Made by a program: the position numbers and the translations under genes
The notes under the pieces: model-generated
Database searches by the model: none
What the model was told of the DNA's origin: nothing
What the model saw: only the letters and a program-made list of their open reading frames with translations
IMG/VR virus record: IMGVR_UViG_2537562020_000004
Source of the DNA: a virus
Lineage: Duplodnaviria; Heunggongvirae; Uroviricota; Caudoviricetes
DNA: 26,889 nucleotides
Direction: 5' to 3' (one strand)
In this document: piece by piece, positions 21,816-26,889 of the stretch
Position numbering within the stretch: position 1 is the first letter of the stretch
Layout: each line of letters starts with the position of its first letter

Positions 21816-22691
21816 CTAGCCTCGTAAATATCGTTTAGTAAATTTCGTGTTTGGTCTGGATGATAGGATTTGTCTTTCTATTTCACTATCACAGTCTATA
21901 TAGTCTAGTGTATTAGCTTCTATAAGTTTGTTCACGTCAATATTTTTTGCATCGATTATGTTGGCATTTCTAAGGTTTGCATTGGTGTATTCCACTTTAT
22001 CCAAATCACACTCTCTGAGTACGCAACTTTTCATTTCCGCATTGGAAAAATCCCCACCATATAAATAGCAGCCTTCAAAAATAACACCGTTTAACTTTGA
22101 ATCCTGAGCTTTAATATTTTTTATTTTACACTTTATAAATTTTACGTTTTTCATTTTGCTCTTGCTAATATTTAATGCCTGGATTGTACATCCAGTGAAA
22201 GAACAGTCTCTTATGTTAGATTTTTCCATATTTAACCCAGATAGTTCTGAGGTTTTAAAGTGTAAGTATTTAATGGTAAAAAGGTCACCCAACTCCATTC
22301 TGGGTATGTCTATATTGAAGACACCTTTATTGTTGAGCTGTCTTATTATTTTTATTTTTTGTATTTTCAAATCAACATTAACGTGCTTAGCTAAGTTTCC
22401 CAAATCCTCAAGAAGTTCATTAATCGTTTCTTTGTTTTGTCTTCTGTATTCAAAGTAATAAAGGATGACACCTAATACAAAAAAATCCAAAATGGATGAA
22501 TTTGCATTTATTAGGAACCCAGACAGGAATGAATCATTGTAATTACCATAGTGTATAGAGGCAAGTGTTACGCCAAATGCATATAAAATAAAAATAATAA
22601 ACACGTGCTTCATTTTGCATAAGGATTGTATTATTGGTTTTATGGCATCAATTTTGTTCATTGCTGCAGCAGCGAAAGATTTAAAAGTCAT
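21816..22691 (-). CDS. Membrane-anchored pentapeptide-repeat protein (cargo at the S-V junction)
   Basis: 291 aa, very AT-rich. Two hydrophobic helices (~res 29-46 and 55-80), a charged linker, then ~20 consecutive pentapeptide repeats (res ~141-250: SNIRD CSFTG CTIQA LNISK ... ANLRN ANIID). Confidence 0.8.
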   Translation of the reverse strand: MTFKSFAAAAMNKIDAIKPIIQSLCKMKHVFIIFILYAFGVTLASIHYGNYNDSFLSGFLINANSSILDFFVLGVILYYFEYRRQNKETINELLEDLGNLAKHVNVDLKIQKIKIIRQLNNKGVFNIDIPRMELGDLFTIKYLHFKTSELSGLNMEKSNIRDCSFTGCTIQALNISKSKMKNVKFIKCKIKNIKAQDSKLNGVIFEGCYLYGGDFSNAEMKSCVLRECDLDKVEYTNANLRNANIIDAKNIDVNKLIEANTLDYIDCDSEIERQILSSRPNTKFTKRYLRG

Positions 22692-24739: not shown

Positions 24740-25340
24740 CCGGCTATTACCCGTTGGCTCGTCGCCGCTGGAGGTTGCCGCCGCTGCCGCGCTCTCTGAG
24801 ATTCAGCGTGTGCCGGTACCGCTGCGCACTCTGTGGAACTGGCGCACCTGCCCGGTAAAACTGCTGCCGTATCTGGCGTGGGCGCTGTCGGTCGACAGGT
24901 GGGATGAGAAATGGCCGGAGGCGACAAAGCGTAGCGTCTGCGCGTCCTCGTTTTTCGTCCATCAGCACAAAGGCACCATTAGCGCATTGCGTCGGGTGGT
25001 TGAGCCGCTCGGCTTTCTGATTGAAGTGCGCGAGTGGTGGCAGCTCAACGAGGAGCCAGGCACATTCCGCCTCGTTGTCGGCGTGCTCGATAGCGGCATT
25101 ACTGACGAAATGTATCAGGAGCTTGAGCGCCTGATTGAAGACGCCAAACCGGCAAGTCGCCACCTGACCGGGCTGGCTATCAGTCTGAGCTCGACCGGCG
25201 AACTGTATGTCGGCGCGGGATGCTATCACGGCGACGCGCTGACTGTTTACCCCTACACCCCCGAGGAGATTGTCGTCGGCGGTGAATATTACCCGGCCTC
25301 GGCCATCCATTTGATTGATAACCTGAGAGTGAACGCATGA
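24732..25340 (+). CDS. I: Baseplate/tail protein I
   Basis: 202 aa. It overlaps the J 3' end and precedes H as in P2. Confidence 0.85.
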   Translation: MNDRLLPVGSSPLEVAAAAALSEIQRVPVPLRTLWNWRTCPVKLLPYLAWALSVDRWDEKWPEATKRSVCASSFFVHQHKGTISALRRVVEPLGFLIEVREWWQLNEEPGTFRLVVGVLDSGITDEMYQELERLIEDAKPASRHLTGLAISLSSTGELYVGAGCYHGDALTVYPYTPEEIVVGGEYYPASAIHLIDNLRVNA

Positions 25341-26158
25341 CCGCAAAATATTTTGCCATTCTGACCAATCAGGGCGCGGCGCGGCTGGCGAACGCGGCGG
25401 CACTCGGTACCAAACTCAACCTGACGCAGATGGCCGTCGGTGATGCGAATGGTACGTTGCCGACCCCTGACCCGGCGCAGACGAAGCTCATTAACCAGAA
25501 ACGCATCGCGCCGCTGAACCTGCTGACCGTTGACCCGGCCAATACCAGTCAGATTATCGCGGAACAGATTATTCCCGAGAATGAAGGTGGTTTCTGGATC
25601 CGCGAGATTGGTCTCTATGACGATGATGGTATTCTGATTGCCGTGGCGAACTGTCCGGAGACCTACAAGCCACAACTGCAGGAGGGAAGCGGTCGCACGC
25701 AGACCATTCGCATGATTCTGATTGTGTCGAGCACATCGGCAATCACCCTGAAAATCGACCCGGCAGTCGTGCTGGCAACGCGCCAGTATGTCGACGACAA
25801 GATTATCGAGGTGAAAGGATATGCTGATGACCTGATGAAAAAACATGTTGAGGCCGCCAATCCACACAAGCAGTACCCGTTAATCGCTAATGCTCTGAAA
25901 GAAATGGTTGACGCGGGACTGGCCGGCGACGTTCTTAAAAACCTTGGTTTGGGAGAAGGTGCTCCAGCTATTGGCGTTCCGTTCTTCTGGCCGTCCGCTG
26001 CAATGCCAAATACTGTAATCGACAGCTGGTCCAGTATGGTGTTTTTGAAGTTCAACGGGGCGAAATTTTCTGCCTCTGATTACCCTGTGCTGGCGAAAGT
26101 GTTTCCTTCACTGGTATTACCTGAAGCCCGCGGTGTGACACACGTACATAGCCAATAA
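25337..26158 (+). CDS. H: Tail fibre protein H, constant N-terminal part, terminated prematurely inside the collar-type receptor domain
   Basis: The N-terminus (...MAVGDANGTLP...GGFWIREIGLYDDDGILIAVAN...EGSGRTQTIRMILIVSS) matches the P2 gpH / Mu S N-domain. After ...LPEARG the frame runs into unrelated sequence (VTHVHSQ-stop). Confidence 0.8.
   Translation: MTAKYFAILTNQGAARLANAAALGTKLNLTQMAVGDANGTLPTPDPAQTKLINQKRIAPLNLLTVDPANTSQIIAEQIIPENEGGFWIREIGLYDDDGILIAVANCPETYKPQLQEGSGRTQTIRMILIVSSTSAITLKIDPAVVLATRQYVDDKIIEVKGYADDLMKKHVEAANPHKQYPLIANALKEMVDAGLAGDVLKNLGLGEGAPAIGVPFFWPSAAMPNTVIDSWSSMVFLKFNGAKFSASDYPVLAKVFPSLVLPEARGVTHVHSQ
25932..25957. promoter_or_regulatory. Hin/Gin/Cin/Pin-type 26-bp recombination (crossover) site 1, inside H
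   Basis: TTCTTAAAAACC TT GGTTTGGGAGAA. The half-sites are dyad-symmetric at 9/12. It is 21/26 identical to the rc of hixL (TTATCAAAAACCTTGGTTTTCAAGAA), with the core AAAAACCTTGGTTT identical. Confidence 0.7.
25944..26135 (+). repeat. 192-bp direct repeat, copy 1 (5' part of the tail-fibre variable/collar segment)
   Basis: 188/192 identical to 26229-26420 (offset 285 bp), with 4 substitutions. Confidence 0.95.
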
Positions 26159-26162
26159 GCAT
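26136..26162 (-). pseudogene. DNA invertase (Gin/Pin/Cin serine recombinase) 5' stub: first 9 codons only
   Basis: The rc is ATGCTTATTGGCTATGTACGTGTGTCA = MLIGYVRVS, the exact N-terminus of Gin/Pin/Cin including the catalytic Ser. SD GGGAGA lies 6 nt upstream. After codon 9 the frame runs into the antisense of repeat copy 1. Confidence 0.75.
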
Positions 26163-26188
26163 GGTAGATCTCCCTGACAAAAGCAGGA

Positions 26189-26686
26189 ATGATGCCATTT
26201 GCTCGTTATTTCTGCATTTTCATAAATGTTGGTTTGGGAGAAGGTGCTCCAGCTATTGGCGTTCCGTTCTTCTGGCCGTCCGCTGCAATGCCAAATACTG
26301 TAATCGACAGCTGGTCCAGTATGGTGTTTTTGAAGTTCAACGGCGCGAAATTCTCTGCCACTGATTATCCTGTGCTGGCGAAAGTGTTTCCTTCACTGGT
26401 ATTACCTGAAGCCCGCGGTGATTTCATTCGTATCTGGGATGACGGGCGAGGTGCCGATGGTGGTCGCGAATTATTAAGCTGGCAGGAAGCTACAAACTTT
26501 TCTCAGTTTGCCGGGAATATAGGCGGAGGTGCGGGACACGCAATTAACTTTCATGATGGCATCGCCGGAAATCAGCCAGGATTTTCACGATTTAATTTCA
26601 CCAGTAACTCTGTGGGTGATGGTGTGAATTTTGTTGCTGTCAGACCGCGAAATATTGCATTTAACTTTCTGGTGAGGGCTAAATAA
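26189..26686 (+). CDS. Detached tail-fibre C-terminal (tail-collar type) segment. The fortuitous ATG lies in the spacer and homology starts at 26229
   Basis: GLGEGAPAIGVPFFWPSAAMPN...FNGAKFSATDYPVLAKVF...LPEARGDFIRIWDDGRG resembles the phage tail-collar domain pattern. There is no SD at 26189. It ends 1 nt into the tfa start. Confidence 0.6.
   Translation: MMPFARYFCIFINVGLGEGAPAIGVPFFWPSAAMPNTVIDSWSSMVFLKFNGAKFSATDYPVLAKVFPSLVLPEARGDFIRIWDDGRGADGGRELLSWQEATNFSQFAGNIGGGAGHAINFHDGIAGNQPGFSRFNFTSNSVGDGVNFVAVRPRNIAFNFLVRAK
26217..26242. promoter_or_regulatory. Crossover site 2 (more degenerate left half), 54 bp upstream of the invertase stub
   Basis: TTTTCATAAATG TT GGTTTGGGAGAA. The right half and central TT are identical to site 1. 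The left half matches the hix half-site TTATCAAAAACC at 8/12. Confidence 0.55.
26229..26420 (+). repeat. 192-bp direct repeat, copy 2
   Basis: See copy 1. This copy continues into the complete C-terminal domain. Confidence 0.95.
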
Positions 26687-26889
26687 TGAAACCTGTTTTT
26701 GATGAAAATGGGCTGGCTACAGTGCCGGGCGATATGCGTTGTTTTTATTATGATGCTGAAACATCTGAGTATACGGGCTGGTCTGATGAATATATTAATA
26801 CTGGCGTAAGTATGCCCGCCTGTTCCACTGGTATTGACCCTGGCGAAAACATTCCGGGAAGAGTGGCAGTATTTACAGGTAAGGGATGG
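26686..26889 (+). CDS. Tail fibre assembly (chaperone) protein, N-terminal 68 codons (runs off the window)
   Basis: ATG 26686 overlaps the preceding TAA (TAATG). MKPVFDENGLATVPGDMRCFYYDAETSEYTGWSDEYINTGVSMPA... is typical of the Tfa / Mu U / P2 G family N-terminus. The frame stays open to the window end. Confidence 0.8.
   Translation, partial: MKPVFDENGLATVPGDMRCFYYDAETSEYTGWSDEYINTGVSMPACSTGIDPGENIPGRVAVFTGKGW

Follow-up and report, generated by a model that had tools for sequence, protein, structure and literature searches.

We analyzed the tail-fibre gene H of a P2-like prophage carried on a 26,889-nucleotide (nt) stretch of DNA (hereafter the window), which is the whole draft contig AQCZ01000071.1 of Escherichia coli BCE019_MS-13, a diarrhoea-causing, CS3-positive enterotoxigenic E. 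coli (ETEC) strain from Bangladesh. In the contig sequence H is split, its receptor-binding end being separated from the constant part by a stub of a DNA invertase gene. Although this arrangement is present in the contig, it is most likely an assembly error and at most a change private to the strain. Judging from comparison with complete genomes, we put the probability that the split H is a contig-end chimera of two paralogous fibre loci at roughly 0.6, and the true H of BCE019_MS-13 would then be the intact form of 354 amino acids (aa).

The original prediction, made from the letters of the window alone, had described a 192-bp direct repeat within H, 188 of whose 192 positions are identical, separated by a 93-bp spacer that reads, on the minus strand, as the upstream region and the first nine codons (MLIGYVRVS) of a Pin-type invertase gene. 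Both elements of this description proved correct (Table 1). The four mismatches between the repeat copies are clustered, at positions 26059, 26068, 26075 and 26083, and the spacer (26136–26228) matched the flank of an invertase gene, named pinE by the Prokaryotic Genome Annotation Pipeline (PGAP), at 93/93 positions in both E. coli 2014EL-1346-6 and E1535. The neighbouring full-length genes matched the Pfam families PF00239 (Resolvase) and PF02796 (HTH_7). H indeed stops after 273 aa with its receptor-binding end detached, as had been proposed, whereas the truncated collar domain that the same proposal placed at its end was not recovered: the N-terminal tail-fibre family PF12571 (Phage_tail_fib) spans residues 1–150 of H, and Pfam found no collar domain in the variable part.

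To interpret this structure we used as the closest complete genome that of ETEC E1535, in which this P2-like prophage occupies the identical chromosomal position, an IS1 element in yfiR included. In E1535, H is intact (354 aa), its constant part running into the variable segment SvA, and is followed by the tail-fibre assembly gene tfaA, by inverted copies of tfaB and of the alternative segment SvB, by an inverted crossover site (TTTTCTAAAAGG-TT-GGTTTGGGGGAA) and by a frameshifted invertase gene that begins with its own codon 1 (MFIGYVRVS). The contig stops 204 bp into tfaA, and up to that point the window corresponds to the E1535 prophage plus 285 bp: positions 1–26135 differ from E1535 at 11 positions, none of them beyond 21523, and positions 26421–26889 at none. 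In silico removal of one repeat unit yielded exactly P0004, a 354-aa protein present in 36 blocks of the collection (24 contigs read), and keeping the other repeat copy instead yielded P0008, which is a natural allele as well. The earlier expectation that a 285-bp deletion would recreate an intact H of about 355 aa was thus borne out, the 354-aa gene being the normal allele in E1535 and on many other contigs. Altogether, 354-aa forms of H were found on more than 100 contigs and the 273-aa protein on one only. L002 (5038–6321; NZ_CP027587.1) and about a dozen similar complete genomes carry a related P2-like prophage whose 197-aa invertase gene is intact; in prophages of this type PGAP splits H into two pseudogene fragments (‘missing C-terminus’ and ‘missing N-terminus’), though only a single SvA copy is present.

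The additional bases in the window come from another locus. Window positions 26136–26394 were 100% identical, including a T at 26227, to an orphan invertible cassette of ETEC O6:H16 2014EL-1346-6, which lacks a constant fibre part and consists of an outward-reading pinE gene of 172 aa, a crossover site, SvA-tfaA, inverted tfaB-SvB, a second site and an outward-reading pinE gene of 184 aa. This cassette has a GIY-YIG gene on one side and the Avs2 defence gene (avs2) on the other and lies near paoABCD. The prophage's own invertase flank in E1535 is only 74% identical to the stub region, as against 100% for the orphan flank, and the stub is therefore foreign to the prophage. When the orphan segments of 2014EL-1346-6 and E1535 were compared, they showed 0 mismatches in 1,570 positions and lay in opposite orientations, the flanking half-sites remaining fixed and the exchange falling between the bases corresponding to 26228 and 26236. 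As a result, the flank of the 172-aa pinE gene adjoins SvB in E1535 and SvA in 2014EL-1346-6. Because the segment is identical but inverted between the two strains, the exchange having taken place at the sites' central TT, we conclude that the orphan cassette, at which intact pinE genes are present, still flips; it is the only one of these loci for which both orientations were found.

The prophage and orphan loci share SvA-tfaA at about 98–99% identity. Two haplotypes of SvA-tfaA, ‘P’ and ‘E’, differ at about 12 positions over the region corresponding to window 26229–26889 (L001, L002, L005 and L016–L022). Each was seen both fused to a P2-like H and beside pin genes of Mu-like or e14-like remnants, indicating that the cassette has been exchanged between unrelated elements. 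At the E1535 orphan locus (L024 26734–27195), PGAP calls an SvA fibre fragment beside pinE a partial ‘integrase’, which is probably a mis-annotation.

The two sides of the joint at 26135/26136 match different loci of one closely related complete genome, and the joint itself was found nowhere else. A 33-mer spanning it was absent from the GTDB representative genomes and from IMG/VR, and a 120-bp junction query had no contiguous match in 5,426 complete E. coli genomes. To the right of the joint the window is a mosaic of alleles. Orphan alleles are retained only in a dense cluster of four single-nucleotide polymorphisms (SNPs), and from 26395 onward the window carries prophage alleles (26395, 26455, 26458, 26487 and 26526), so that every isolated SNP rightward of the cluster shows the prophage allele. 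Such a mosaic would be expected of a majority consensus taken over two repeat copies that had been collapsed into one. The mixed haplotype of 26330–26540 had no 100% match in the same 5,426 genomes, and a third locus carrying it was accordingly rejected as the source.

All of the anomaly is confined to the final 754 bp of the contig. Within E1535, the prophage and orphan copies of SvA-tfaA are identical over the stretch corresponding to 26527–26889, and their next difference falls at 26890, the first base past the contig. The contig thus ends exactly on a fork between paralogues (26889/26890), and it starts inside an IS1 element (1–277). The end on this fork also shows that the strain has a second SvA-tfaA copy diverging there, presumably the orphan cassette. 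The orphan-derived piece starts at 26136, which is 100 nt to the left of 26236, the first base that separates SvA from SvB beside that pin flank. Since the orphan cassette flips, a culture may hold a minority of reads in which the flank of the 172-aa pinE gene is joined to SvA; such reads could extend no further than one read length into the flank.

These features can be combined into the scheme that we favour. The strain would hold two loci: a P2-like prophage, in which H comprises the constant part, a Pin-type site and SvA and is followed by tfaA, inverted tfaB-SvB, an inverted site and a decayed invertase gene, and, elsewhere on the chromosome, an orphan SvA-tfaA/tfaB-SvB cassette with two flanking pinE genes, still flipping. 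The assembly would have followed the prophage path to 26135, where it would have been joined head-to-tail to a second assembly unit. This unit would start about one read length inside the orphan pin flank, in the orientation that places SvA beside the 172-aa pinE gene, cross the collapsed SvA-tfaA repeat and stop where the two loci diverge. The resulting chimera would duplicate 192 bp and insert the 93-bp pin flank. The Bangladesh ETEC genomes of Sahl et al. 2017 (PMC5469772), among which sister BCE strains are named, were obtained with 100-bp HiSeq 2000 reads and the Celera Assembler. BCE019_MS-13 probably belongs to that set, although a literature search found no paper that describes its assembly by name. 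We favour an artefact because of the contig-end position, the fork, the coincidence with the read length, the uniqueness of the joint and the place at which the alleles switch, a 26-bp interval despite 363 identical bp to its right; we infer that the assembler made the joint. The consensus step of the Celera Assembler may force units that cannot be aligned to abut, which would give exactly a blunt head-to-tail duplication; a literature search found no paper documenting such forced abutment of unitigs.

Table 1. Features of the split H region and of the orphan cassettes. Positions are those of the window unless a locus or accession is given.
Feature	Position	Strand	Description
Tail-fibre gene H	25337–26158	+	273 aa: constant part, first 64 codons of the variable part, 7 residues from the antisense of the pin stub, stop
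Crossover site 1	25932–25957	+	TTCTTAAAAACC-TT-GGTTTGGGAGAA; boundary between constant and variable parts of H; same site in E1535 at L001 5633
Repeat copy 1	25944–26135	+	First 192 bp of variable segment SvA; prophage (‘P’) alleles; identical to E1535 prophage
Novel blunt joint	26135–26136		SvA position 204 against pin codon 9; 0 bases shared by the parental sequences
pinE stub	26136–26162	-	Codons 1–9 (MLIGYVRVS) of a pinE-type serine invertase gene; identical to the orphan cassette's 172-aa pinE at its 5′ end
Upstream (promoter-side) region of pinE	26163–26216	-	Within the 93/93 match 26136–26228
Open reading frame of 164 aa (gene finders)	26192–26686	+	From 26229, in-frame receptor-binding end of H (SvA); same frame beside pin genes in many genomes
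Crossover site 2	26217–26242	+	TTTTCATAAATG-TT-GGTTTGGGAGAA; pixR-type; direct orientation relative to site 1
Repeat copy 2	26229–26420	+	Orphan-cassette (‘E’) alleles at 26344, 26353, 26360 and 26368; prophage allele at 26395
Allele switch-back interval	26369–26394		26 bp in which orphan-cassette alleles give way to prophage alleles
Prophage/orphan-identical stretch	26527–26889		363 bp; contig ends on its last base; loci differ at 26890
tfaA, 5′ part (tail-fibre assembly/chaperone)	26686–26889	+	Cut by the contig end; PF28596 (Caudo_TAP_N)
Orphan cassette	L015 5509–8462; NZ_CP024232.1 1020307–1023260		SvA-tfaA / tfaB-SvB between two pinE genes
Orphan cassette of E1535	L024 26117–29070; NZ_CM180510.1 331117–334070		2.5 Mb from the prophage

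Several observations weigh against an assembly artefact. The joint is read from the contig consensus alone. Overlap-layout assemblers do not normally make a joint unless reads or an overlap bridge it, so that a blunt one without shared bases calls for real junction molecules, for repeated chimeric reads or for such a forced abutment. The end of the left unit at 26135, 25 nt past the SNP at 26110, fits no simple rule for 100-nt reads. The coincidence between the start of the orphan piece and the read length fits 101-nt rather than 100-nt reads and is post hoc, having emerged after several other offsets had been tried. Moreover, both the mosaic and the placement of the contig end on a fork would also be seen if a 285-bp insertion were real, and E1535, although close, is not clonal to BCE019_MS-13 (11 SNPs in 26 kb). 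An artefact and a real event alike need one abnormal blunt joint at 26135/26136. As for its origin, a false edge in a de Bruijn graph was excluded, as no base at the joint is common to the two parental sequences. An origin from the k-mer length was also discarded: 26135 lies 52 nt past the SNP at 26083 and 25 nt past that at 26110, and neither distance gives a k consistent with the E/P mosaic. Position 26136 was rejected as a boundary between pin paralogues, the two pin copies differing at 26118 and 26139.

If the joint is real, which we regard as possible but doubtful, the pin-proximal end of the flipping orphan cassette would have been copied into the prophage H, leaving a revertible, fibre-less ‘off’ allele. 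A piece of 233–259 bp, running from pin codons 9 to 1 through the region upstream of pin and site 2 into the beginning of SvA, would have produced a net insertion of 285 bp, its right end being joined by homologous recombination within 26369–26394 and its left end illegitimately, without homology, at 26135/26136, through an accident of homology-anchored illegitimate recombination or of gene conversion. The truncated H would leave virions without the receptor-binding tip, while RecA-dependent recombination between the 192-bp repeats could restore H. The prophage–orphan–prophage order of alleles is as expected of an insertion from the orphan locus, donor and recipient loci both exist in the lineage, exact deletion of the repeat yields a known functional allele, and a contiguous consensus from an overlap assembler would usually imply some reads that span the joint. 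However, such a lesion requires a rare joining event with zero microhomology as well as a crossover that fell within just 26 identical bp, when 363 bp of perfect identity were available further to the right. It was also found in a single draft contig, at its very end, with the insert starting one read length from one paralogue fork and the contig ending on another. Two other routes to a real joint were rejected. Had a 285-bp circle from the orphan locus integrated by a Campbell-type crossover, the orphan G would persist at either 26110 or 26395, yet the window has A at both; a Pin-mediated exchange of the prophage site with an orphan site as the sole event would be conservative, would occur at the site and would create no duplication.

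We compared the crossover sites with the published Din-family sites collected in Table 3 of PMC3241671. Both span 26 bp and are imperfectly symmetric, their conserved half-sites flanking a central TT (AA on the opposite strand). Site 1 matched pixL at 23/26 positions and the complement of hixL at 21/26, the latter figure agreeing with that reported for it earlier, and site 2, which indeed shares its right half with site 1, matched pixR of e14 at 25/26. The alignment that the original prediction had called for upheld the Pin/Hin-family nature of the sites. The 14-mer common to both sites (TTGGTTTGGGAGAA) occurs exactly twice in the window, where none would be expected (100 shuffles). No further convincing site was found in the 26.9 kb, the other matches (at most two mismatches) lacking a plausible left half-site. 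The T at 26227 in site 2 is shared with the flank on the side of the 172-aa pinE gene in the orphan cassettes of 2014EL-1346-6 and E1535; the other pin-adjacent loci examined and the published pixR have C at this position, and the T alters the conserved G of the GTTT motif read from the opposite strand. Both window sites are on the plus strand, in direct orientation and 285 bp apart, while in E1535 the same prophage has a normal inverted pair 1.8 kb apart (L001 5633, plus strand, and 7439, minus strand). Nor does the window hold an intact recombinase gene, only codons 1–9 being present. The lack of inverted sites with an adjacent intact recombinase is what would be expected if the arrangement is not genuine.

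The model first put forward for this region, an aberrant inversion within a single element with one endpoint 204 bp into the variable segment and the other at codon 9 of the resident invertase gene, would flip the segment and disable the switch. Under it, the invertase gene from codon 10 onward would be found downstream, fused to what remains of a variable segment in inverted orientation. The visible topology (constant part, site, 204 bp, inverted pin stub, site, SvA, tfaA) fits this model, and L012 and L013 are P2-like relatives in which a full 197-aa invertase accompanies a flipped pin-site-SvA arrangement. With E1535 as proxy, however, it was contradicted, and we consider it very unlikely: the resident invertase remnant keeps its own codons 1–9 (MFIGYVRVS) in a flank of 74% identity to the stub region, whereas the stub and spacer are identical at 93/93 positions to the pin flank of an orphan locus 2.5 Mb away. 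In addition, the relatives examined have no second variable segment that shares the first 204 bp, SvB sharing only the site with SvA, and a simple inversion joint would not account for the reappearance of prophage alleles beyond 26394. It is scarcely credible that the arrangement is functional, either as direct sites in a working multi-site switch of the Min or shufflon type or as a normal two-gene fibre. Two good sites speak for such a system, and nothing more; at least three would be expected of a multi-site switch, the window has two in 26.9 kb, and the multi-site alternative raised earlier thus found no support. Invertases of the Hin/Gin family act on inverted sites and not on direct sites 285 bp apart. 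A functional two-gene fibre is opposed by the absence of the arrangement from every related prophage and from all other genomes, and by the fact that the first open reading frame ends in residues derived from antisense sequence.

Two further features of the prophage region were observed. The IS1 element at 1–277 interrupts yfiR just upstream of dgcN (yfiN); it is also present in E1535 and absent from the other carriers of the prophage, and loss of YfiR could de-repress the diguanylate cyclase DgcN. On the minus strand at 21816–22691, between tail gene S and baseplate gene V and in the opposite orientation, lies a gene for a 291-aa pentapeptide-repeat protein, which looks like a moron-type cargo gene and is kept in all close relatives of the prophage.

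If the split H is an artefact, multi-copy fibre cassettes that flip in culture can lead short-read assemblers to plausible ‘rearranged switches’ at contig ends, and the deposited truncated protein EMV40224.1 should not be taken as biology. If it is real, it represents a private loss-of-function mutation of a prophage fibre gene with an easy route back, which bears on the decay and exchange of host-range modules, and would show that orphan invertible cassettes and prophage host-range genes engage in physical cross-talk. In either case the underlying biology is a classical Pin/Gin/Cin host-range switch on a P2-like prophage together with an e14-like orphan cassette, which is already known and not new in kind.

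The arrangement resembles the collapsed-repeat and chimeric contig ends of short-read draft genomes in that it occupies the last 754 bp, draws on two paralogous loci, has a mosaic consensus, ends on a fork and starts in IS1, but it differs from them in its blunt joint, which needs at least one chimeric read or a forced join. Iida and colleagues reportedly showed that recombination of the Cin/Gin family at secondary (‘quasi’) crossover sites makes abnormal joints near the switch. By contrast, the 26135/26136 joint is not site-like, there being no shared central dinucleotide and no similarity between the flanking half-sites. As in the Gin-controlled G segment of phage Mu and the Cin-controlled C segment of P1 (S/U versus S′/U′), a constant fibre part in E1535 meets, at a 26-bp site, one of two alternative C-terminal parts that have assembly genes of their own, and the serine invertase gene adjoins the segment on its outer side, directed away from it; the differences are that the P2-like prophage holds a frameshifted invertase remnant and that the split H lies outside the normal switch cycle. 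The Pin system and P segment of e14 in E. coli K-12 differ from the window, whose sites are direct and 285 bp apart and which has nine recombinase codons only, and the donor locus is not e14 itself but an orphan cassette that has pin genes at both ends and lacks a constant fibre part. With e14, nevertheless, the locus shares the close match of site 2 to pixR (25/26) and of site 1 to pixL (23/26), a stub that encodes the Pin N-terminus MLIGYVRVS, and, as seen in E1535, a segment in which alternative fibre ends and their tfa chaperone genes lie in opposite orientation.

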